In this document: piece after piece, positions 9,010-36,010 of the stretch | Position numbering within the stretch: the stretch's first letter is position 1 | How the letters are laid out: the number at the start of each line of letters is the position of its first letter | Source of the DNA: Armatimonadota bacterium | Lineage (GTDB): Bacteria > Armatimonadota > HRBIN16 | Assembly (NCBI GenBank): GCA_026003195.1 | Contig: BPGU01000004.1 | Location: 70,317 to 134,316, forward strand | DNA: 64,000 bases | Direction: 5' to 3' | Notes under the pieces: model-generated | The model's input: only the letters and a program-made list of their open reading frames with translations | Databases searched by the model: none | Told to the model about the DNA's origin: nothing | Program-made: the position numbers and the translations under genes

Positions 9010-9418
9010 GCCTCCTTTTGGTTGGCGCCCTGAGATATGGGGTTTGTCGCAAAAACCACCGTCGGATAGTATACCGAAAGCCCTGCTCGGTGTCAAACAC
9101 CATCCGCTCTGCAGCAGGGCTCATACAGTATATACGGAAAGCGAGGCGAAAAGGTGCCTCTCATCCCCGAAGGATTCGCGGTTTCGAGCAAAAAACCCGT
9201 GCCTTTGCGAGAGGGAGATGTCCGATTGACGGCTCTGGAGCGGTACGCTAAACTATTTGCGTGGATAATGGACATCAGATTCCTTCTGGTGCGATGGGCG
9301 CGCTCCTTCCTGCCAGAATCTGTAGGGCAATTTTCTCAGCAGGCAGGGAGGAGAAGGTTCGGCAGGAGCCTCGCCCTCCGGGAGGATGATATCGATATCG
9401 GAAAGGAGCGGATATCAG

Positions 9419-10753
9419 ATGCGCTTTCGAACGATGCTTGTGTCCTGCTTGCTGGTATTTTTGTGCGCTCTTGCCAGCGCACAGCGCAAGTACGATTTCG
9501 TGATGTTACCTGCGGATAGTGACCTCAACGCGAACGTTTCCCTGCAGGCGTTTACCAGTGGCACTTTAATCGGCAATTACGACCCCAATACCAACCCCAC
9601 GGGCACGCGCACTAAACCCGGGTTGTTCGGCAATTTTGGAGCTACAGAAAACGTGCCTGTGCCGGTGGAGGTGAACCCTTTGGTGGAAGGCAACGTGGCT
9701 TCCAAACCGGCAGGCACGTTCAGTATGGTGCTGCACCCTGAAGCGGGGCAGGTTGTGCTGCTCGATTTCTTTTCCGACCTGCTGCACTCCGGCGCGGTCA
9801 GCTTGCCTGCCAGCGCGGAGTTCGCCACCGATGGCTTTCGCACGCGCAATCCCACCTCCACTTACCCCGCCGGGCGGTTCACCGTACCGGTAGGAGAAAT
9901 TCTGGTGACTCAGCTGACCGCCACTCAGGTAGGCGAACCGGCGGTGGGCACGCTCAGCCCGCTGGGCGGTAATCGCTACGCATTCGCCGTTGCGCCGACG
10001 GTGGTGCTGACCGTGCGGGCGGAGCTACAGGGTAGCGTGCTGGAGAGCACCTCTAACCCGAATCCCCTTGCACTGGTCGGCGAGGTGGAGATACAGGGCG
10101 ATGCCGCCACCATCCTCTCGGTGAATGCCATCGACTGGTCGGATGTGGATACGCCGAACCAACCCATCCCGCAGTTCGCGATGGACCTGCCTACCGTTTT
10201 CCCGCCCGGCGACGTCGCACACCTGCTGTTTGACCTTACGCTGAACGAGGTGCGCACGCGCGTAAACGGAACCTACACCATCGCCGCCAGCGGTGTGGCG
10301 AGCTACCGCATGGTGAGCGGTACTGTCATGCTGGGCGACTATACCGCACCGACGGGCGGGTTGAACATCCCGATAGAGATACGCACTCCGGGCGAGACGA
10401 CACCTCTGGAGACGCACGTGGTTGCGCTCAACGATGCGGGCGAATATCAGTTCCAGACCGCGCTGTGGGGCACGTTTGACCTCTCTGCGAAAGGCGTGCA
10501 CTGGCTGAGGCACACAGTTTCAGGCATCTCGCTGGAGAAAAATGCGCAGGTGGACTTCACCTTGACAAACGGCGACATCGACGGCGATAATGAGGTGACG
10601 TTGTTCGATTTCGGTGCGCTGGTTGCCGCCTTCGGCAGCATGCCCGGCGATGCTCACTGGAACTCTGAGGCTGACCTGGACGGCGATGAGGAGGTGACGC
10701 TGTTCGATTTCGGTATCCTGGTGAGAAACTTCGGGGCGATAGGAGACGAGTAG
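9419..10753 (+). CDS. Secreted protein with C-terminal dockerin-like (type I) repeat pair
   Basis: Start at MRFRTMLVSCLLVFLCALASAQ (signal peptide), RBS GGAAAGGAG upstream. C-terminus carries two dockerin-type calcium-binding repeats: DIDGDNEVTLFDFGALVAAFG ... DLDGDEEVTLFDFGILVRNFG. Confidence 0.7.
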   Translation: MRFRTMLVSCLLVFLCALASAQRKYDFVMLPADSDLNANVSLQAFTSGTLIGNYDPNTNPTGTRTKPGLFGNFGATENVPVPVEVNPLVEGNVASKPAGTFSMVLHPEAGQVVLLDFFSDLLHSGAVSLPASAEFATDGFRTRNPTSTYPAGRFTVPVGEILVTQLTATQVGEPAVGTLSPLGGNRYAFAVAPTVVLTVRAELQGSVLESTSNPNPLALVGEVEIQGDAATILSVNAIDWSDVDTPNQPIPQFAMDLPTVFPPGDVAHLLFDLTLNEVRTRVNGTYTIAASGVASYRMVSGTVMLGDYTAPTGGLNIPIEIRTPGETTPLETHVVALNDAGEYQFQTALWGTFDLSAKGVHWLRHTVSGISLEKNAQVDFTLTNGDIDGDNEVTLFDFGALVAAFGSMPGDAHWNSEADLDGDEEVTLFDFGILVRNFGAIGDE

Positions 10754-11053
10754 ATGAGCCAACCCTTGATGACCAGACGTCAGTTCCATCTCGCACTGAT
10801 GACATCTGTAGTAGCTCTGGCTGCGCCCGGCGGAGCGCAGGAACCCTCTACACACTCAGTCGACACCTTGCCGGCAGATGTCGTTAACTCCTGGCTTCCC
10901 GCACCGATGCCTCCTGAGCAGGCGCAGAAGGTGGCGGAAGCGGTAAAATCCATGCAGCAAACGTTAGCAAACCTGCGCGCTTACCCTCTACCCGAAGGCT
11001 CCGAGCCTGCTTTCGTATTCCAACCCCGCCCCCTCAGAAAGGAGAAGCGATGA
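10754..11053 (+). CDS. Small twin-arginine (Tat) signal protein, translationally coupled to amidase
   Basis: 99 aa. Tat motif TRRQFHLAL followed by a hydrophobic h-region and AxA-like site. Its stop overlaps the amidase start (ATGA). Confidence 0.5.
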   Translation: MSQPLMTRRQFHLALMTSVVALAAPGGAQEPSTHSVDTLPADVVNSWLPAPMPPEQAQKVAEAVKSMQQTLANLRAYPLPEGSEPAFVFQPRPLRKEKR

Positions 11054-12503: not shown

Positions 12504-13499
12504 CTACACCGTCACCGTCAGTCCTTCTTCGGGTATCCACTGACGCAGGTAGTCGGCGTTGCGCTTCAGATCGTCCAGAATAACATCCTCGCGCTTGGTG
12601 GAGCCGGGGATGATTTCACAGATCAGATAGATGTTCTGTGGCAGGGGTAGCCACTCTGCCCACGGCTGCTCATCGCGCCAACGCAGGCTCTCGGCGATGG
12701 CATCCAGCACCTTCGGTATCTCGATATGCCCCTTCGCGTTGTATTCAGGGGTGAAGGGCCAGTGTGCGCTGGCGTCGGGCGTGGTCTGCTGCAGGTGTAT
12801 CACCTCCGCCGCCGTGCCGAAGCGGCGCAGCCATTCGGTGTAGTCCAGGTCGGCACCGCTCAAGCCGTAGTGCATCCCGGCGCAGTGCCCCACGTCCAGC
12901 GTCAGATAAACGGGTATGCCCTTGCGCTCACGGTTCACTTCCACCAGAAAGCGTTCCGCTTCGGCTAAGGTCCAGGGCGATTCGCTGGGGATGTACATCT
13001 GCTCCTGATACAGCGCGCGGATACCCTTCTGCGCCAGCGCTTCGGAGAGTTCGCGGAAGATGGCGTACTGTCGGTGCAATGCCTCTTCGTGGCGCGCGGG
13101 GTCGGAGAGTACCTCCACCGAGAAAGCGTCCCAGTGACCGCCGATAGCATCCACCCCCATCGCGCTGGCGATGTCGGCGCACTCGATAATCCACTCTTTC
13201 ATACGCTGGCGCACGCGCGGGTCGGAATGACTCAAACCGTGAAATCGGTGCGTGGCAACGCCGGTGTAGATGTCGTTGATGAACACACCGTACTTCTGCG
13301 CCGCTTCGCGGGTCGCGTGGGCTGTCTCTATTTGATACTCTTTGTCGCCGGAGAAGAAGGGGTCCAACACATCTGCACAAAACGAATGCACCCGATAACC
13401 GCATTCGCGGGTCAGGCGCATCCAGTTTTCGGGTTCCTCCCATCGGCGCGTGAGAAATGCGCCATTGATGCCCAACCATAGCTTGACGCTCTTGCTCAT
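12504..13499 (-). CDS. Sugar phosphate isomerase/epimerase (xylose-isomerase-like TIM barrel)
   Basis: 331 aa. Family-level similarity pattern (LGINGAFL..., metal-binding His/Asp/Glu pattern of AP-endonuclease-2 / xylose-isomerase-like TIM barrels). Confidence 0.65.
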   Translation of the reverse strand: MSKSVKLWLGINGAFLTRRWEEPENWMRLTRECGYRVHSFCADVLDPFFSGDKEYQIETAHATREAAQKYGVFINDIYTGVATHRFHGLSHSDPRVRQRMKEWIIECADIASAMGVDAIGGHWDAFSVEVLSDPARHEEALHRQYAIFRELSEALAQKGIRALYQEQMYIPSESPWTLAEAERFLVEVNRERKGIPVYLTLDVGHCAGMHYGLSGADLDYTEWLRRFGTAAEVIHLQQTTPDASAHWPFTPEYNAKGHIEIPKVLDAIAESLRWRDEQPWAEWLPLPQNIYLICEIIPGSTKREDVILDDLKRNADYLRQWIPEEGLTVTV

Positions 13500-13834
13500 G
13501 CTTCCTCCTCAAACGGTTGCCAGCGACAGGATGTCATATCTACCCGTCCGTCCTCGTGGAACCGTACACCCTCTTGCTGCAGCAGGTGACGTTGCAGAGC
13601 CGCCATGCGCGGGTCGCGTTTGGCAATCAGCAGGTCGCCCTCTTTGCCGACCACGCGCCACCAGGGAACACTGTCAGGAGCGTGGTACATCACCCTCCCC
13701 ACGATGCGTGCAGAGAGAGGTGGTACCATCCAGTCGCCCACCTGCCCGTACGACATCACCCTGCCAGCAGGAATCTGCCGCACCAGGTCATATACCTCTT
13801 GCATCAGGTTTGCGCCGATTCGCTGGCGTAACAT
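13496..13834 (-). CDS. MGMT-family DNA-binding protein (alkyltransferase-like, Atl-type)
   Basis: Ogt/MGMT C-terminal DNA-binding-domain pattern (VYDLVRQIPAGRVMSYGQVG...). The active-site PCHRV is replaced by PWWRVV, as in Atl proteins. The ORF is GTG-extended to 13975; I placed the start at an internal Met, which is uncertain. Confidence 0.45.
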   Translation of the reverse strand: MLRQRIGANLMQEVYDLVRQIPAGRVMSYGQVGDWMVPPLSARIVGRVMYHAPDSVPWWRVVGKEGDLLIAKRDPRMAALQRHLLQQEGVRFHEDGRVDMTSCRWQPFEEEA

Positions 13835-14067
13835 TTTCTGGGTTACTGCAGTCTGTATGATGGACGGACGGCAGCACATTTCGCTGTAGAAACAGCGTAT
13901 TCCTGCCATGATGAGTACAGGGCAGGAAGGAGGGAGGTCTTTTCGTGGTGGACAGGCTGTTTCGGGGCAAAACACAAGCGACGCTTTGGCGCGAAGCTCT
14001 CTCTACGACTCTGTTCTTGTGGAAGACAAGCACCGATTTCGCGCGCTCTGCAGGAAAGGGAGGCAGA

Positions 14068-14994
14068 ATGTCGGCTCTTCTGCGCATAATGCTCTGGACG
14101 GCGATGGTGTTGCTGGTGCATGTGGCGGCTGTGGCTCAGCAGGCACCGGTTCAGACGACGCCGCAGCTGTTCCGCTACCGTTTTGAGCCGGGCACTCCAG
14201 CAAAGTATCGGGTGAGCGCACAGATGTCGGGCACTTTGCCGTTGTTCGGTGGCTTGCCGGTAGAAAAGGTGCTGCTGGATATGACGGTAGTGTTGAAGGC
14301 GCGTCAGGTGCGTCCCGACGGCAACGTGGAACTGGGTATTGATGTGGAGACGTTCAAAGCGGAGATGGACGGGCAAGCGTTGCCGTTGCCGGTAGACCGT
14401 CTGCGTGCCAGTGTGCGCGACCTGGTGTTTGTGGTCACTCCACAGGGCGAGATCGTGGAGCGGAAAGGGGGAGGCGCAATGCCTTTCAGTATACCCATTC
14501 CGGGCATAGAAGCGAGCCAGCTGCCCTTGCTGGTGCTTCAACTGGTGTTTCCTCGCGAACCCCTCTCCAGAGAGCAGGAATGGAGCTATACTCGCGCCAT
14601 GACCACCCTCCCTAACGACACTCCTGCCCAGTTCACGGCACGATGGCTCAAAGAGGAGGCGGTGCACCATCTGGACGCCTCGCTGTTTCATCAGAAGATG
14701 CACTGGAGCCGCTCGTTCAAAGCGGACGTCTTTGACCTGCCTACCACCGACGAGAGCCTGATGGTCAAACAGATAGAACAGACCGTCAACGGCGAGGCGC
14801 AGATATGGTTCAGCCGCGCCGACGGCAGGCTGGTCAAAGCGGTGCTGGATGCACAATATGAGCAGCGGGCTCGCCTGCTGAATCCCGGCGAAACCGCCTC
14901 ACAACCCGCTCCGGCACGATTAACAGCCAGAGTGCAAATCACCCGCGAGGAACTGCTTTCTCGCGAGCAGCAAAACGGACAAACCGAAAGATAG
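14068..14994 (+). CDS. Secreted hypothetical protein, paralog of the next gene
   Basis: Start at MSALLRIMLWTAMVLLVHVAAVAQQ (signal peptide) with RBS AGGAAAGGGAGG; the longer ORF from 13945 is rejected. Shares sequence pattern with the 15010 product (Y+hRF/+hF..G..Y+h...G; ...DG.hEL.h.h.TF+.EM.GQ). Confidence 0.6.
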   Translation: MSALLRIMLWTAMVLLVHVAAVAQQAPVQTTPQLFRYRFEPGTPAKYRVSAQMSGTLPLFGGLPVEKVLLDMTVVLKARQVRPDGNVELGIDVETFKAEMDGQALPLPVDRLRASVRDLVFVVTPQGEIVERKGGGAMPFSIPIPGIEASQLPLLVLQLVFPREPLSREQEWSYTRAMTTLPNDTPAQFTARWLKEEAVHHLDASLFHQKMHWSRSFKADVFDLPTTDESLMVKQIEQTVNGEAQIWFSRADGRLVKAVLDAQYEQRARLLNPGETASQPAPARLTARVQITREELLSREQQNGQTER

Positions 14995-15009
14995 AAAGGG
15001 GTACGACAC

Positions 15010-15885
15010 ATGAGGTTCATGACACGATTTTTGACAGCGATGGCAGTTGTCACTTTGCTTACGGTAACAGTATTGCCTGCACTGGCGCAAGAGGGCTACA
15101 AACTGCGCCACGTCTTCAAGGTCAACGACATCCGCCGTTACAAGATGGTCATGGATATGAACGGCGAGATGCAGATGGGCGAGAACTCCATGCCCCAGAA
15201 CATGCAGATGGTGATGACCTATCGCGAAAAGGTAGCGGGCATCAAGGACGGCAAGGCGACCGTCCACACTACCTTCGAAGGAACGAAGATGTACATGAAC
15301 GGTCAGGAGTTCGTCTCGCCGATGGCTCCCGACATGAACAACATGGTCATCACCACAGTGATCGACGACCGCAACAAAGTGTATGAAATCAAGGGGCTGG
15401 AAAAGGTATCTATGGGCGCGCCCGGTATGGGCATCCTGAACATCGTCACGGTGTTCAATCCGCGTGCTGAGTTTCCCGAAGGAGAGATTAAAGTAGGCGA
15501 CTCGTGGGAGACCAAGGTGTACATTCCCAACGCGGGCGACCTGAAGATCACGGCCAAACAAACCTTTGTGAGCGTGGAGAAGGTCGGAGAGGTGGAAGCT
15601 GCCCGCATCAAGACCGAGTTCGAAATACCTTCTGAGAAGCTGATGGCAGCAATGGCAGGGCAATCTCCTGCGGGCGTCCCTCCCATGACGGGGACCTCCA
15701 AGATGGTGTCATACACCTACTTCGATCTTGCCACCGGCAACATTCTGAAGATGGATGGCGACATGGTCATGAGCATGCAGATGCTGGGCGGTGCGAACCG
15801 GCAGATGCCGCAGAACATGCAAATGAACATGACCGCCAAGATATCGCTGATGCAGGTGAAAGAGGAGAAGCCAGCGGGGAAATAA
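15010..15885 (+). CDS. Secreted Met/Gln-rich hypothetical protein
   Basis: 291 aa with signal peptide MRFMTRFLTAMAVVTLLTVTVLPALAQ. Multiple MxM/MQM motifs (MQMGENSMPQNMQMVM; MSMQMLGGANRQMPQNMQMNM). Confidence 0.6.
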   Translation: MRFMTRFLTAMAVVTLLTVTVLPALAQEGYKLRHVFKVNDIRRYKMVMDMNGEMQMGENSMPQNMQMVMTYREKVAGIKDGKATVHTTFEGTKMYMNGQEFVSPMAPDMNNMVITTVIDDRNKVYEIKGLEKVSMGAPGMGILNIVTVFNPRAEFPEGEIKVGDSWETKVYIPNAGDLKITAKQTFVSVEKVGEVEAARIKTEFEIPSEKLMAAMAGQSPAGVPPMTGTSKMVSYTYFDLATGNILKMDGDMVMSMQMLGGANRQMPQNMQMNMTAKISLMQVKEEKPAGK

Positions 15886-15996
15886 GCCACATCTTCATCA
15901 GGGGGATTGCTTCGGCACCTCCTGCCATGCAACGTCATGGCAAGGCAGCGTAGCAACCGAAGCAATCTCCCAGTGCATCTTTATGCTGGATAAAAA

Positions 15997-16914
15997 ATGC
16001 CTCACCTTATCACACTCCGCACCGTCGCGATGGGCTGCGACTTCGAAGTATTCGCCTTCGGAGAAGAGAGAGGGCTATTGCGCTCCGCTGCAGAGGCGGC
16101 TGTCGAGGAGATAGAGCGCATCGAGCAGCTGCTCAGCCACTATCTCCCCGAGAGTGAAATCAGCTACCTCAATGCCCACGCCGCCATCGAGCCAGTGCGT
16201 GTACATCCCGAAGTGTTCGCTCTGATAGAGCGCGCGCTACGCCTTTCCGAAGAGACACAGGGAGCGTTCGACATTACCGTGATGCCGTTGATACAGTGCT
16301 GGGGGTTCTTCGCGGGTGTTGGGCAGATACCGGATGCTCAAACTGTGGCGCAGGCTGTGGAACGGGTGGGGTCTTCGCGTCTCCTTTTGAATACGGAGAA
16401 TCTGACTGTTGCCTTTGACCGCGAGGGCGTACAGGTGCATCTGGGCGCTATCGGCAAGGGATATGCGGTGGACAAGGCGATAGAAGTGTTGCGTGACGCC
16501 GGTGTGGAAGCGGCGATGGTGCACGGTGGACATAGCAGTGTGCGGGCGTACGGAACCCCTCCCGATACGGGAGGCTGGCAGATAAACCTCCCCCATCCCC
16601 TGTATCCTGAACGTAGCCTTGCCCACTTACTGCTGCGCAATCGGGCAATATCCACCTCATCAGCAACCGAGCAGTACTTCGAGCGCGGCGGGCGGCGGTA
16701 TGGGCATATTCTGGACCCCCGCACGGGCTTGCCAGTGGAAAACAACCTGCTCTGTGTGAGCGTGCTCGCGGATGAGGCAGCGGTGACCGATGCGCTCTCG
16801 ACCGCCTTCTTCGTGCTGGGTGAAAGAGGGGTTCGGGAATACGTTGCCTCGCATGCGGGGGTGCAGGTAGCTCTACTGCGACAGGATGGCGAGCAGATCG
16901 AGTGGATAGGCTGA
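15997..16914 (+). CDS. apbE: FAD:protein FMN transferase (ApbE family)
   Basis: 305 aa. ApbE signature GAIGKGYAVD and Mg/FAD-binding C-terminal region. Confidence 0.85.
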   Translation: MPHLITLRTVAMGCDFEVFAFGEERGLLRSAAEAAVEEIERIEQLLSHYLPESEISYLNAHAAIEPVRVHPEVFALIERALRLSEETQGAFDITVMPLIQCWGFFAGVGQIPDAQTVAQAVERVGSSRLLLNTENLTVAFDREGVQVHLGAIGKGYAVDKAIEVLRDAGVEAAMVHGGHSSVRAYGTPPDTGGWQINLPHPLYPERSLAHLLLRNRAISTSSATEQYFERGGRRYGHILDPRTGLPVENNLLCVSVLADEAAVTDALSTAFFVLGERGVREYVASHAGVQVALLRQDGEQIEWIG

Positions 16915-17028
16915 GGTGCTTTGGGCAGGAGAACATCCCCAGATTTGTGAAGTATAATGTGTACGGCGAAGATATTCGCCGACAACATTGGCTGCGGTTC
17001 TGAAGCGGTTTGAGGAGGTTGAGGTTTC

Positions 17029-18387
17029 ATGTTCAAAGACAAGCATATTCAGGTATCCCGGCGCGAGTTTTTGCGCGACTCGGCATGGGCTGCTGCCGCT
17101 GCCGCCTTCGCAGCAGCATTTCAGGAGAGACTGGAGGCGCAACAGAAAAAGGGCCAGCCTGCCAGGACACAACCAGCAAAGCCAGCGACGCAACAAGCAA
17201 AACCCACGCCACAACCCGCCCGCAACCTGCCCCCGGTGAACATCGGTTTTATCGGCACGGGCACACAGGGGCAAACGCTGCTGCAACGCCTTGTGCGTAT
17301 CCCCGGTGTGCGCGTGCTGGCGGTGTGCGACATCTATCCACCGCATCTGTCGCGAGGGTTGCGTATGGCGGGTGCGCAGGCAAAAGGCTACGAGGACTAT
17401 CGGCAGGTTCTGGACAGAAAAGACATTGATGCGGTCATTATCGCAACGCCCCTATACCTGCACGCCCCCATGAGCATCGACGCCCTGCAGGCAGGCAAAC
17501 ATGTGTTCTGTGAAAAGACGATGGCTTATTCCGTGGAGGATGCGCGACGCATGGTGCAGGTCTCCCGTGAGACGGGCAAGCATCTGCAAATCGGACACCA
17601 GCGCCACTACAGCCCCATCTACGCGCACGCTCGCGAGATGATGGTGGAGCAAGAGGTTATCGGCAAGCTGGTACATGTGCGCGCATGGTGGCATCGCAAT
17701 AACTCGTGGCGGCGCCCCGTGCCCGATAAAAAGTACGAGGAGCTGCTGAACTGGAGGCTCTACCGCAAGTACTCACAGGGGCTGATGGCGGAGCTCGCCA
17801 GCCACCAGATAGACGTGGTCAACTGGTTTACCGGTGCAACGCCCATTTCGGTGATGGGCATGGGTGGAATCGACTACTGGAAGGACGAGCGTGAGGTATG
17901 GGATAACGTGGAGGTTATCTACGAATATCCCGACGGCGTGAAGGTCGTTTACACCTCTATCCTGTCTAACCAGTACGATGGCTATGCCGAGCAGTTCATG
18001 GGCGACAAAGGCACGTTGCTGCTCACGAACGAGAAGGACGGCTTCCTGTTCAAAGAGCCCACCGCGGAAGAACTCGGCTGGGAAGCACACGCCAAGAAAG
18101 CCGCAGGCAAGGGAGGCACCACCGGTCTGGTGCTGGATGTCACTGCCACCAAGAAGAGAGGCACTGGGGCGGTTATCGGTGGGCAGAAGATGGCGGCGGG
18201 CTATGAGCTGAAGGATGCCTACACTCTGGAGCTGGAAAGCTTCGTCAACGACGTGGTACGCAACGGGCAAAAACCGCTGTGCGACGCGGAAGTAGGTTTC
18301 AAAACAGCGGTCGCCGTGCTGATGGCAAACAAAGCCATCGAGGAGGGCACAAAGGTGACCTTTACACCCGACATGTTCCAGGTGTAA
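17029..18387 (+). CDS. Tat-secreted Gfo/Idh/MocA family oxidoreductase
   Basis: Twin-arginine signal SRREFLRDSAWAAAAAAFAAA. Rossmann motif NIGFIGTGTQGQ and GFO_IDH_MocA C-terminal domain. Confidence 0.85.
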   Translation: MFKDKHIQVSRREFLRDSAWAAAAAAFAAAFQERLEAQQKKGQPARTQPAKPATQQAKPTPQPARNLPPVNIGFIGTGTQGQTLLQRLVRIPGVRVLAVCDIYPPHLSRGLRMAGAQAKGYEDYRQVLDRKDIDAVIIATPLYLHAPMSIDALQAGKHVFCEKTMAYSVEDARRMVQVSRETGKHLQIGHQRHYSPIYAHAREMMVEQEVIGKLVHVRAWWHRNNSWRRPVPDKKYEELLNWRLYRKYSQGLMAELASHQIDVVNWFTGATPISVMGMGGIDYWKDEREVWDNVEVIYEYPDGVKVVYTSILSNQYDGYAEQFMGDKGTLLLTNEKDGFLFKEPTAEELGWEAHAKKAAGKGGTTGLVLDVTATKKRGTGAVIGGQKMAAGYELKDAYTLELESFVNDVVRNGQKPLCDAEVGFKTAVAVLMANKAIEEGTKVTFTPDMFQV

Positions 18388-18431: not shown

Positions 18432-19523
18432 TCAGAACTGATAAGAGTAGTAGACAGCGATACCTTGCTGGCGTGCGTATTCTTCCACATCCCGCTCGGA
18501 TATCATGTGGGTTACCAGTATCGGGAATGGATTGGGATATGCGCCCTGTAGCCGCTGCAGTTTGCGACGCACAAAGGCATCGACGTCGTTCTTCGAGAGC
18601 TGCGCTTTGCTTTCACCTACGATGGTGATGATATCGCCGTTGCGACGCGCCTGCCCAAAGATATTGACCTCGATGTACTCACCGGTATTGTCCGCCACGA
18701 ACTGCCTCTTCAGGTCGCCCTCTATCTCTATGCCGAAGTCCCGTGCGAGCAGGCGTGGCAAAGCTTTGTACGCCTCGTTCTCAATCGTGTACCCCACGGT
18801 GATAGAGAGGCCGCCAACCTGCTTGCGCAGGTCATCTAACCCCTGTGTGAGGCGGCGGATGTCTTCCTGAGTTTGCTGTTGCACCTGGATCAGCTGTTGC
18901 ATCATCCTCTGCAGGTTGCCAATCTCCTGCGAGTGCTGTTGTGTCACCTGCACCAGCTCCGCCGTTTGCTGCCTTAGTTCAGCAATTTCGCGGGAGTGCT
19001 GTTCGGTGACCTGAAGCAGCCTGTTCACCGCCTCCCGCAACTCGGCGATGGCTTCGGTGTTGCGCTGGGTCGCCTCCCGCAACTCGGCGATGGCTTCGGT
19101 GTTGCGCTGGGTCGCCTCCCGCAACTCGGCGATGGCTTGGGTGTTCTCGCGCACCATCTGCCTCAGTTCGGCAATCTCGCGAGAGTGCTGCTCGGTAATC
19201 TCAAACAGCCTGTTCACCGCCTCCCGCAACTCGGCGATGGCTTGGGTGTTCTCGCGCACCATCTGCCTCAGTTCGGCAATCTCGCGAGAGTGCTGCTCGG
19301 TGACCTGAAGCAGGTTCGCGAGGACGCTTTCGATGCGGGCAAAACGCTCTTCTACCTCCCGCCGCAGCGCGGTGGTTTCCTCATACAGCGTGCGGAACCA
19401 CTTTTCGCTCATCGATTCCTGGAGCTCTGTAAACGCGCTACCCAGCACCTCCGCGATGCCTTCTGCAGCGGCGGGATCCATTTTGTCCTTTAGCTTTTCG
19501 TAGATGGTCAACGTGTCTATCAT
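18432..19523 (-). CDS. Coiled-coil repeat protein with C-terminal PD-(D/E)xK-like (restriction-endonuclease-fold) domain
   Basis: Start placed at MIDTLTIYEKLKDK, with RBS GAGGGAG. Central heptad-rich region built from 14-aa and 34-aa repeats (EAIAELREATQRNT; VTEQHSREIAELRQMVRENTQAIAELREAVNRLL). C-terminus reads GEYIEVNIFGQARRNGDIITIVGESK (D...ExK). Confidence 0.6.
   Translation of the reverse strand: MIDTLTIYEKLKDKMDPAAAEGIAEVLGSAFTELQESMSEKWFRTLYEETTALRREVEERFARIESVLANLLQVTEQHSREIAELRQMVRENTQAIAELREAVNRLFEITEQHSREIAELRQMVRENTQAIAELREATQRNTEAIAELREATQRNTEAIAELREAVNRLLQVTEQHSREIAELRQQTAELVQVTQQHSQEIGNLQRMMQQLIQVQQQTQEDIRRLTQGLDDLRKQVGGLSITVGYTIENEAYKALPRLLARDFGIEIEGDLKRQFVADNTGEYIEVNIFGQARRNGDIITIVGESKAQLSKNDVDAFVRRKLQRLQGAYPNPFPILVTHMISERDVEEYARQQGIAVYYSYQF
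18940..19320. repeat. Intragenic perfect tandem DNA repeats (2 x 42 nt, 2 x 102 nt plus diverged flanking copies)
   Basis: CGCCTCCCGCAACTCGGCGATGGCTTCGGTGTTGCGCTGGGT occurs twice in tandem. A 102-nt unit (CCTGTTCACCGCCTCCCGCAACTCGGCGATGGCTTGGGTGTTCTCGCGCACCATCTGCCTCAGTTCGGCAATCTCGCGAGAGTGCTGCTCGGT...) occurs twice with about 3 mismatches. All are in frame with the minus-strand CDS. Confidence 0.8.
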
Positions 19524-19581
19524 GGACGCTCCCTCACGTACCGTTCCACTCGAATTATACCACCACGGGGCAAAATCTGTC

Positions 19582-20649
19582 TCAACGCAGCTTTTTGCCC
19601 GTGACCACCTCGTAAGCGGCGAGCACATTGTCCACCGGCGTGTTGGGCTGGATGCAGTGCGAAGGAGCGAAGATATAGCCTCCGTCCTTCCCAATGACCT
19701 CCACACGATGCTTTGCCTCGGCGATGCAGTCCTCTATTGTGCCGAAGGGAAGTGTTCTCTGGGTGCTGATGAGCCCGCACAGGGTGAGCTTATCGCCGAC
19801 CTCGCGTTTGATCTCTTCGGGGTTCATGCCCACCGGCTCAGGCTGCATGGCGTCCAGGATGTCCAGCCCCATCTCCACGAAGCGCGGCTGCAGTTTGCGT
19901 GTGCTCCCGCAGCTGTGCATCATCACCTTGCAACCGTACTGATGCCCCAGGTCGTAGAACTTTTGCAAGCGCGGGCGGAAGAAGCGGTCAAAAACCTCTG
20001 GAGAAACCATTGGACCAAGCTGATTGCCCAGGTCCTCCCCCACACAGAGCACATCTATCAGACCGTCTGCCTCCTCCAGTCCGCGCTTCACGAACTCATA
20101 ATAGAACTCCACGCGATGGTCAATGATGGCAACCCCCACTTCGTCTTCGGTGAGGATATCTATCAGCACCTGCTCCATGCCTCTGCCCCGGCTGACGCCG
20201 TTAATGATGTCGGGAATACCTGCCCCACCAAAGCACACGACGTAATCTCCCACCGCTTTGCAGGCTTCCTTGAGATGCAAGAAGTCGTAGTCGTCCACCG
20301 AGGGCCAGGGGTAGTCCTCCACCTCTTTCAACGTGCGCATATGGGCAAACGGAAGTTCGTACGCCTCCAGGTACTCGCCGAAACCGTATGACTGCCGAAT
20401 GTAGCCGATCCCCCACTCGTCGTAGTACGCCACCGGGCTACCCGGCTCTGGTTGGCGTAGTGGTTTCTTGCGCGGCACACCCACTGTGCGAAAGTCCACC
20501 TCCAGAACCTCCAGCAGGTTCTGACCCGGAAACCGCTCCTGCAGCTTCGCCTCGAATTCAGGGGTGGTGTAAAACTGGATAGGCGGTCTATCCGGCTGCT
20601 TGTGAGCTACGCACAGAGCAAATCGCTCCTTGGGACTCATCCACGACAT
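19582..20649 (-). CDS. Uroporphyrinogen decarboxylase (URO-D) family protein
   Basis: 355 aa. URO-D / MtaA-like (beta/alpha)8 pattern. Confidence 0.7.
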   Translation of the reverse strand: MSWMSPKERFALCVAHKQPDRPPIQFYTTPEFEAKLQERFPGQNLLEVLEVDFRTVGVPRKKPLRQPEPGSPVAYYDEWGIGYIRQSYGFGEYLEAYELPFAHMRTLKEVEDYPWPSVDDYDFLHLKEACKAVGDYVVCFGGAGIPDIINGVSRGRGMEQVLIDILTEDEVGVAIIDHRVEFYYEFVKRGLEEADGLIDVLCVGEDLGNQLGPMVSPEVFDRFFRPRLQKFYDLGHQYGCKVMMHSCGSTRKLQPRFVEMGLDILDAMQPEPVGMNPEEIKREVGDKLTLCGLISTQRTLPFGTIEDCIAEAKHRVEVIGKDGGYIFAPSHCIQPNTPVDNVLAAYEVVTGKKLR

Positions 20650-35002: not shown

Positions 35003-36010
35003 CTATACCTCCCCCTGATACAGCTCGGGACAGGGGTTGCCATGCTCGTCGTACCAGCCATAGCGTTCGCGCATCTCCAGCATCAGCAGATAACGTTCCA
35101 GCGGAAGCCCTTTGAACGCCACGTTGGTTGTTGCGTACACATATCCGCCGCCGGGCATTCCATGTTTCAGCACGTATTTGCAGTTCTGGATAATCTGCTC
35201 CTCCGTACCGGTCTGCAGCAGGCTACACTGCACCCCACCCAGCAGGCAGAGTTTCTCCCCTGCCAGCGCTTTTATCTTCGCGATGTCCATATCCTTCGCC
35301 TGACTGTCGATGGAGTGCAGTCCGTGTGGCTCCGCTTCCACAATCTGGTCCAGAATGGGCATGATGTTGCCATCGGTATGTTTGATGACGTACAGCCCCA
35401 TCGCGCGGTATCCCGCCACCAGTTCCTTCAGATAGGGGGTGACAAATTGCCGGAACATCCGCGGCGAGAGGAAAGGACCGTCATTAAAGGCGTAATCGGC
35501 ACACAGGGCGAAGCCGTCAATGCCGTACTCTTCGCGCAGGCGCTTGCCCCGTTGCAACGCCCATTGCACGTTGCGCTTTGCCGTGTCGTGCATCTCATCG
35601 GGGCGCTCGAAGAAGGCGGTTGCCACCTCCACCATATCGCTGCCTGTGGGGATGGCGAAGGTGGCGTCGCCGTGTGCAATCAGCAGGTACTTATCGCCCA
35701 CGAGGTCGCGGATGTAGCGAATGGTGTGTCCTAACCCATCATCATCGGGGGCATGGACAATCATGAGGATACTGTAGTCTAACCTCTCGGCAACCTCGAT
35801 ATACAGTTCTGCGTTCTCGCGCAATAGGCGGTCACATTGCGCAGCGGTCGCGTTCTGGAACTCATGCCAGTGGTGGTACTCTTTGCCCAGCAACTCTTGC
35901 GTCAACTGGAACTCCAGTTCGAAGGTGGGCACTTTGCTGTGGGGGCGTGGGGGCTTGCGCTCCAGCGCCCAGATAGCCTGTTGCTTGGGAGTGAGAGCAT
36001 CTGTTGCCAT
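35003..36010 (-). CDS. Uroporphyrinogen decarboxylase (URO-D) family protein
   Basis: 335 aa. URO-D / MtaA-like pattern; paralog of the 19582–20649 product. Confidence 0.7.
   Translation of the reverse strand: MATDALTPKQQAIWALERKPPRPHSKVPTFELEFQLTQELLGKEYHHWHEFQNATAAQCDRLLRENAELYIEVAERLDYSILMIVHAPDDDGLGHTIRYIRDLVGDKYLLIAHGDATFAIPTGSDMVEVATAFFERPDEMHDTAKRNVQWALQRGKRLREEYGIDGFALCADYAFNDGPFLSPRMFRQFVTPYLKELVAGYRAMGLYVIKHTDGNIMPILDQIVEAEPHGLHSIDSQAKDMDIAKIKALAGEKLCLLGGVQCSLLQTGTEEQIIQNCKYVLKHGMPGGGYVYATTNVAFKGLPLERYLLMLEMRERYGWYDEHGNPCPELYQGEV

Follow-up and report, generated by a model that had tools for sequence, protein, structure and literature searches.

In a 64,000-nucleotide stretch of the genome of an Armatimonadota bacterium (assembly GCA_026003195.1, contig BPGU01000004.1, positions 70,317 to 134,316; hereafter the window), two neighbouring genes encode secreted proteins, here called P1 and P2, the second of which carries a conserved ladder of methionines (Met). 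They are followed on the same strand by apbE and by a gene for a Gfo/Idh/MocA oxidoreductase (hereafter Gfo) with a twin-arginine translocation (Tat) signal, and all four genes lie where an earlier note on this DNA had placed them (Table 1). Our tentative reading, to which we give nearly even chances, is that P1 and P2 form a bicistronic pair of periplasmic barrels related to the Pfam family DUF6263, with P2 carrying a pocket that is lined with thioethers and receives a ligand of hydrophobic or soft character. On this reading the region comprises two separately conserved gene pairs, P1-P2 and ApbE-Gfo.

A methionine ladder in a predicted secreted barrel

The Met richness of P2, which the earlier note had described as a studding with MxM motifs, is far beyond chance. 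P2 contains 33 Met (11.3%), with 11 MxM and 3 MxxM motifs, no Cys and two His (H34 and H86), compared with a mean of 2.5% Met over all 48 open reading frames (ORFs) in the window that are 250 aa or longer, P2 among them; the highest value besides that of P2 is 5.0%. P1 has no MxM motif at all. The label "Gln-rich" that the same note gave to both proteins fits them poorly, as Gln accounts for 7.5% of P1 and 4.1% of P2.

The Met residues of P2 are ordered in the predicted structure and conserved among distant relatives. Strands are predicted to hold 22 of the 33, at every second position, and the Met-rich segments are modelled with block values of the predicted local distance difference test (pLDDT) of 79–93, one loop excepted. 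Across a 60-sequence alignment (A3), in which the 59 homologs are about 25% identical to P2, Met occupies 54–73% of 13 columns (48, 50, 54, 65, 67, 94, 96, 226, 256, 258, 270, 272 and 274). The other residues found in these columns are Ile, Val, Leu and Ala, and the columns between them hold Asp, Asn, Thr, Lys and Ser. Within the N-terminal ladder the columns are 22–68% Met, mostly 54–68%; within the C-terminal ladder, columns 226, 256, 258, 270, 272 and 274 reach 56–73%, and columns 232, 248, 252 and 254 only 14–29%. Among P2 orthologs the Met columns are nearly invariant. The residues of P1 aligned with M46, M48, M50, M54 and M56 of P2 are V, A, M, L and L, and in P1 and other Met-poor relatives the face on which the Met positions of P2 lie is aliphatic. 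The earlier note had allowed that these segments might be disordered, low-complexity linker lacking conservation; instead, the ladder is a structured, conserved feature of the apolar face of a subfamily.

Judged from periodicity and substitution patterns alone, the Met side chains probably point inward. The predicted hairpin register would pair M54 with M61, M50 with M65, M48 with M67, M46 with M69, M67 with M94 and M65 with M96, and in the C-terminal hairpin M258 with M270, M256 with M272 and M254 with M274. Some 20 Met would therefore stand at every second position of about six strands, concentrated toward one end of the barrel. Five of the six Met strands would follow one another as hairpins, and pairing of the N-terminal with the C-terminal strand would join all six into one continuous set.

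At the N-terminus of both proteins a basic n-region precedes some 15 hydrophobic residues that close with an A-x-A-type end, which we read from sequence alone as Sec-type signal peptides; that of P1 comprises the N-terminal 25 residues and ends AVAQ/Q, and that of P2 ends ALAQ/E. A periplasmic location would follow for both. Pairwise comparison by BLASTP yields an E value of only 0.04, yet hhalign aligns the P1 and P2 family profiles over 248 columns with 93% probability (E 2.7e-7), and the P1 family with the 60-member superfamily profile (A3) with 99.6% probability (E 1.1e-23). On these profile comparisons, P1 and P2 are true, albeit remote, paralogs, which agrees with the earlier proposal of a shared fold with divergence.

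Close homologs fall into approximately 32 clusters each for P1 and P2 (33 homologs for P1, all of Armatimonadota-type metagenomic origin), and those with a named source all derive from metagenome-assembled genomes (MAGs) of Armatimonadota/Chthonomonadetes or from unclassified "bacterium" bins. In the genomes of these close homologs the two genes are invariably side by side, and P2 matches KatS3mg023_3125 from an Armatimonadota MAG at 100% identity. An exhaustive search with the P2-family profile extended the set to 1,099 representative clusters (defined at 50% identity) at E ≤ 1e-3, including 229 at E ≤ 1e-10; most matches were full-length, in proteins of 270–340 aa. Residues P156 and W166 of a signature motif (Table 1) are invariant in the 60-sequence alignment. 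DUF6263 (PF19777) was matched by 35 of the 60 sampled homologs (best E 2e-10), and three P2 orthologs (P0015, P0017 and P0030) bear a precomputed PF19777 label. These matches place P1 and P2 in a superfamily that is large, uncharacterised and akin to DUF6263, whose members have a similar size and signal peptide, with homology established transitively through the homologs found by the P2 profile. Neither protein itself reaches the Pfam gathering threshold of 26.7 bits: the match of P2, over residues 155–209 only, has 17.3 bits (E 0.0037), and P1 has no PF19777 match in the Pfam scan. The literature searched yielded no function for DUF6263 and no paper mentioning the family. With at least 229 clusters of secreted proteins in several bacterial phyla, identification of the ligand would annotate a whole family.

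More remote members were located with a motif-selected alignment (A4), which gave 47 distant family loci in species-representative genomes of Armatimonadota, Aminicenantes, Verrucomicrobiota, Planctomycetota, Bacteroidota, Terriglobia and Gemmatimonadota. Two Chthonomonadales loci (L009, 4842–8900; L021, 5248–8855) contain four tandem superfamily paralogs, of which the last alone is Met-rich (11.6–12.3% versus 1.2–4.7% Met in the other three), an arrangement that echoes the order of P1 and then P2 here. One of the 60 homologs gave a weak match to the HMA family, in which no convincing CxxC domain could be traced, and we treated it as noise.

As the earlier note had proposed, the structures of both paralogs were predicted and searched with Foldseek, and the models share an all-beta barrel fold. 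The AlphaFold (AF2) models, built from the P1 and P2 family alignments, are confident, with a pLDDT of 82 for P1 and 76 for P2, and show roughly a dozen long antiparallel strands and one to three short helices per protein. Both retrieve the same set of Protein Data Bank (PDB) entries, namely the N-terminal barrel of lipovitellin/MTP/ApoB (template modelling (TM) score 0.43–0.48), Mycobacterium smegmatis LmcA (0.39–0.45) and LIMP-2/CD36, with LolA-like and DUF1329 proteins further down. These best matches are soluble lipid-binding barrels, elongated in shape, antiparallel and apolar inside. The matches have a probability of 1.00 at TM scores of 0.39–0.48 and root-mean-square deviations (rmsd) of 7–10 Å; as modelled, P1 and P2 resemble these proteins at the level of fold and not by homology, and there is no sequence relationship between them. 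A profile search of PDB sequences gave no match at E ≤ 1. To our knowledge, none of the lipovitellin/MTP/ApoB, LmcA, LIMP-2/CD36 or LolA-like barrels has a Met-lined interior.

Two gene pairs, probably conserved separately

Several features of the locus set P1-P2 apart from the genes that follow. P2 starts 15 nt past the stop codon of P1 and is preceded by AAGGGG, and directly after its own stop codon stands a long, GC-rich stem-loop (Table 1), likely a terminator or an mRNA-stabilising 3′ end. Hairpins of differing sequence occupy the same site in the three other orthologous loci (L001, L004 and L008), that of L004 being followed by a U-tract. With such a structure downstream of P2 at each of the four orthologous loci, P1-P2 appears to be its own transcription unit.

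ApbE is a clear FAD:protein FMN transferase (E 1.7e-38 against solved enzymes), in which H237, D240, P241, R242 and the GAIGKGYAVD block are invariant among orthologs and the HI(L/I)DPRTG motif is conserved. Its reading frame cannot be extended at the N-terminal end, being closed by a TAA two codons ahead of the ATG, and the Pfam match begins at residue 12. All four ApbE orthologs begin directly at the catalytic domain, and many homologs at 45–53% identity also have no signal peptide. Lacking a signal peptide, the enzyme is predicted to be cytoplasmic, and for the same reason it could not modify the Sec-exported P1 and P2. Its neighbour Gfo matches PF01408 (E 8.9e-23), PF02894 (E 1.4e-19) and the Tat signal model TIGR01409 (19.8 bits versus a cutoff of 16.7) and reached the cutoff of no equivalog family. 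The best solved matches of Gfo are inositol dehydrogenases and GFOR, followed by glycoside 3-dehydrogenases and GH109, with no close characterised relative.

The association between these two genes extends across phyla. Four ApbE homologs at 45–52% identity, chosen solely for lying on long contigs, all adjoin a co-directional Gfo gene of about 430–460 aa with a Tat-type twin-arginine (RR) motif. Among the metagenome ApbE loci for which both flanks were available, an adjacent Gfo was found in 9 of 36, always on the same strand, and a further four had one within 1.5 kb; the association was present in 8 of 14 loci with signal-less ApbE versus 3 of 22 with Sec- or membrane-anchored (TM-type) ApbE. 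Adjacent pairs occur in unrelated phyla (L056–L059, L061, L062, L064, L065, L072, L077, L081, L082 and L095), and nearly all partner Gfo proteins have the RR motif. The conserved partner of this ApbE across phyla is thus a Tat-exported Gfo, and it is to this protein, rather than to P1 and P2, that ApbE would be functionally coupled. We found no paper linking ApbE with Gfo/MocA proteins in the literature searched.

The earlier note had proposed that the four genes together form one periplasmic redox or metal-handling module. P1 and P2 would then work with the flavin- or NAD-dependent oxidoreductase, perhaps by carrying its electrons or substrate; we judge such a module improbable. The four genes are co-oriented, and together with a divergent pair encoding an MGMT-like and an AP_endonuc_2 protein they make up a block that is kept in orthologous loci down to approximately 56% identity, where the outer flanks differ. 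However, the adjacency of P1-P2 to ApbE is limited to one narrow clade: ApbE was near none of the 47 distant family loci and Gfo near one of them. Conversely, none of 84 ApbE loci, with flanks of 4–6 kb on each side where the contig allowed, had a P1/P2-like gene beside it. The hairpin between P2 and ApbE, the predicted cytoplasmic location of ApbE as opposed to the Sec route of P1 and P2, and the absence of a flavinylation motif from both of the latter also argue against a single module. P1-P2 stands beside ApbE-Gfo only in one clade of thermophilic Armatimonadota, and its link to ApbE seems accidental. Nor did a conserved neighbourhood of the superfamily emerge elsewhere. The genes neighbouring 40 distant loci represented 154 different Pfam families, with no metal-resistance family among those found in more than one locus, and all-against-all clustering of 136 of these neighbours, combined with Pfam, gave only generic or lineage-synteny families (such as SDR, ABC, YjeF, Dfp and FHA).

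What ApbE might flavinylate is less evident from the neighbourhood. In line with the earlier note, the strict motif D-x-x-[ST]-G-A-[ST] is absent from P1, P2, ApbE and Gfo, as well as from any plausible gene of the window; it also occurs in none of 25 ApbE-linked Gfo proteins, and no FMN_bind-type client was found near ApbE. The sole strict match in the window (35226–35480, minus strand) falls in an 85-aa stop-to-stop frame beneath longer ORFs and is probably non-coding. A TGAT sequence in Gfo (NWFTGATPIS) was rejected as a flavinylation site, with orthologs reading MDAT and TDSV. The family-specific insertion of Gfo contains LDVTATKK, considered as a candidate non-canonical site, which conforms to a loose [LM][DE]xx[AGS][TS] pattern that recurs in some ApbE-linked orthologs and is absent from the acidobacterial ones. 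ApbE may modify Gfo at a non-canonical site before Tat export, or may itself be co-exported with Gfo through Tat. Cytosolic ApbE is already known (review PMC12052999), and a large survey of flavinylation left out ApbE genes lacking a signal peptide (PMC8238504).

The ApbE described here shares a strong family match and catalytic motifs with known ApbE proteins, among them the cytosolic enzyme of Klebsiella pneumoniae, whose client is a soluble fumarate reductase, but differs in having as its conserved neighbour a Tat-exported, NAD-type Gfo/Idh/MocA protein, with no FMN_bind client or motif nearby. Pairs of signal-less ApbE and Tat-exported Gfo may matter as much as the Met ladder, as they could represent a new ApbE client or a case of Tat co-export; were Gfo flavinylated, it would be a new class of ApbE client and an electron outlet for periplasmic NAD-dependent sugar dehydrogenases. 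Separately, several ApbE homologs (P0283 and P0329; L085, L087, L088, L113, L114 and L132) carry, in place of a lipoprotein signal, an N-terminal twin-arginine-type motif (e.g. TTRRDFLSGR), which recalls the Tat-exported ApbE relative NosX.

Candidate ligands of the putative methionine-lined barrel

The reading that we favour combines these results as follows. Members of the superfamily would be elongated all-beta barrels of about 300 aa, and P1-P2 an operon closed by the hairpin and encoding two Sec-exported remote paralogs. In P2, thioethers would line a pocket or core at one end of the barrel, and the protein would act as a periplasmic binding or carrier protein whose ligand is most likely a lipid, an isoprenoid or an acyl chain. 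The Met-poor P1 would be its partner, or else a sister protein of different specificity. The second pair would couple the signal-less ApbE with a sugar-type Tat-exported oxidoreductase. A Met frequency of 54–73% at more than a dozen presumably buried strand positions is very unusual, and its retention argues for a ligand or property dependent on thioethers, for instance a soft metal, a hydrophobic pocket of great flexibility or the sensing of redox state. We found no description of the ladder, nor relevant work on Met-rich periplasmic barrels, in the literature searched.

Several observations weigh against this reading. That Met is strongly selected over any other aliphatic residue would suit a role peculiar to thioethers, for instance the binding of Cu(I)/Ag(I), as well as or better than it suits a plain lipid ligand. 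TM scores of 0.4–0.5 with rmsd values of this size amount to a likeness of fold only. The homologs were recruited with a Met-rich query profile, and the set leans to Met-rich members, with at least 8% Met in 81 of the 149 best-scoring homologs and less than 5% in 20. As for the separation into two pairs, conservation of the six-gene block down to the same level of identity may reflect some lineage-specific coupling between P1-P2 and ApbE-Gfo, and no flavinylation site was found in Gfo, where the Ser and Thr residues conserved in all orthologs occupy generic fold positions.

The foremost alternative is that P2, like the rest of the Met-ladder subtype, binds or buffers Cu(I)/Ag(I) in the periplasm, with thioether clusters within the barrel coordinating several soft metal ions, as a thioether counterpart of Csp or an expanded CusF/CopC-type site; we regard this as possible, albeit unlikely, and it would be the more interesting outcome if true. 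CusF, CopC and Ctr1 use MxM motifs to bind Cu(I). The numerous MxM and MxxM motifs of P2, its structured and conserved Met segments, the prevalence in 13 columns of Met and not of just any hydrophobic residue among such distant homologs, and the lack of Cys, which suits an oxidising periplasm, are all in keeping with copper. P2 thus resembles CusF, CopC/PcoC, the Met-rich insert of CueO and PcoE/SilE in its motifs, its predicted location and its lack of Cys, but it has no homology to them, its Met lie in long strands rather than in loops or disordered inserts, and its neighbourhood contains no cop, cus or pco genes. Neither P1 nor P2 matches CusF, CopC, PCuAC or HMA families in Pfam or NCBIfam at E ≤ 1, and the single weak HMA match was the only one of this kind among the 60 homologs. 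The sequence offers no evident His or Trp co-ligand, H34 and H86 not being conserved across the superfamily and the invariant W166 belonging to the signature motif. Copper ATPase, multicopper oxidase, cus and cop families are missing from the neighbour families that recur among the 40 distant loci, and none of 72,556 plasmids searched, frequent carriers of metal-resistance genes, encodes a superfamily homolog. Met-poor relatives also retain the fold with aliphatic residues at the Met positions. Of the copper-type motif suggested in the earlier note, the conserved MxM pattern therefore stands, whereas the family match, evident His or Cys co-ligands and copper-related neighbours are lacking; beyond the Met motif itself, nothing points to copper. 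A bolder combination, in which Met-ladder barrels are widespread Cu(I)/Ag(I) stores, the Met counterpart of the Cys-lined Csp, and in which ApbE separately flavinylates Gfo non-canonically or leaves the cell with it via Tat, appears more doubtful still.

Two other explanations of the Met content have considerably less to recommend them. P2 might be a sacrificial Met sink for periplasmic oxidants such as HOCl and H2O2, recycled by a methionine sulfoxide reductase (Msr) in the manner of MrpX, a Met-rich peptide that is reportedly a precedent. The very high Met content and the predicted periplasmic location would suit such a role, which we nevertheless consider very unlikely: the Met residues on the apolar face of ordered strands would be poorly accessible and their oxidation would harm the fold, P2 is predicted to be a folded barrel of some 300 aa rather than a short peptide, and no Msr-type family is among the neighbour families of more than one of the 40 loci. 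Lowest in our estimation, and highly improbable, is that P1 and P2 are integral outer-membrane beta-barrels with the alternating Met facing lipid. Their strands do alternate between hydrophobic and polar residues, and many porins appear among the weak Foldseek matches. However, the porin TM scores are about 0.2, compared with 0.4–0.48 for soluble barrels, and the hydrophobic stripes, at about 16 residues, are longer than a membrane-spanning strand. The models also contain internal helices, and the C-terminal aromatic beta-signal is absent, with P2 ending in KPAGK and P1 in a predicted helix (GQTER).

Features of the region and neighbouring genes

Table 1. Coordinates of the genes and sequence features discussed, numbered from the first letter of the window.
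Feature	Position	Strand	Basis or detail
Shine-Dalgarno sequence of P1, GGGAGG	14058..14063	+	Read from sequence; 4 nt ahead of ATG at 14068
P1, Met-poor (3.2%) secreted barrel paralog (predicted), 308 aa	14068..14994	+	ORF, homologs, AF2 model, hhalign
P2, Met-ladder secreted barrel paralog (predicted), 291 aa	15010..15885	+	ORF, homologs, AF2 model, Foldseek
N-terminal Met ladder of P2, residues 44-96, three adjacent strands (predicted)	15139..15297	+	M46/48/50/54/56, M61/65/67/69, M94/96
Superfamily signature motif in P2, FPEGEIKVGDSW	15472..15507	+	Consensus [FL]PxxPVKVGD[TS]W
C-terminal Met ladder of P2, residues 226-281	15685..15852	+	M226, M232, M248/252/254/256/258, M270/272/274
Stable stem-loop 3′ of the P2 stop, likely terminator or mRNA-end structure	15901..15971	+	dG -43.6 kcal/mol, z -4.5
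ApbE-family FAD:protein FMN transferase, 305 aa, without signal peptide	15997..16914	+	PF02424, E 2.6e-75
Tat-exported Gfo/Idh/MocA oxidoreductase (Gfo), 452 aa	17029..18387	+	PF01408, PF02894, TIGR01409
Tat signal of Gfo, residues 9-30	17053-17118	+	TIGR01409
Family-specific insertion of Gfo, approximately residues 356-392	18094-18204	+	Ortholog comparison

The divergent pair ahead of P1 (window 12504–13837, minus strand) encodes a 113-aa MGMT-like protein and a 331-aa AP_endonuc_2 TIM barrel of the xylose-isomerase/endonuclease-IV type, with the stop codon of the former overlapping the start of the latter (13496–13499). The 113-aa protein comprises the MGMT DNA-binding domain only, with PWWRVV replacing the catalytic PCHRV, and looks alkyltransferase-like. 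The two genes are kept together in all orthologous loci and might form a DNA-repair couple.

Further upstream (window 9386–11053), genes for a 455-aa secreted protein, a 99-aa secreted protein and an amidase follow one another, and a trio of the same gene sizes lies ahead of the block in L004 and L005. The 455-aa protein has a weak C-terminal dockerin-type repeat pair (Dockerin_1, E 2e-4, just under the family cutoff). Downstream of Gfo, a 424-aa coiled-coil protein (window 18432–19706, minus strand) contains near-identical internal repeats (AIAELREA.../TEQHSREIAELRQMVRENTQ...), with the underlying DNA repeats at 19044 and 19086. Orthologs of variable length come after Gfo in L001 and L004, and faint DUF8196 labels appear in L003–L005.

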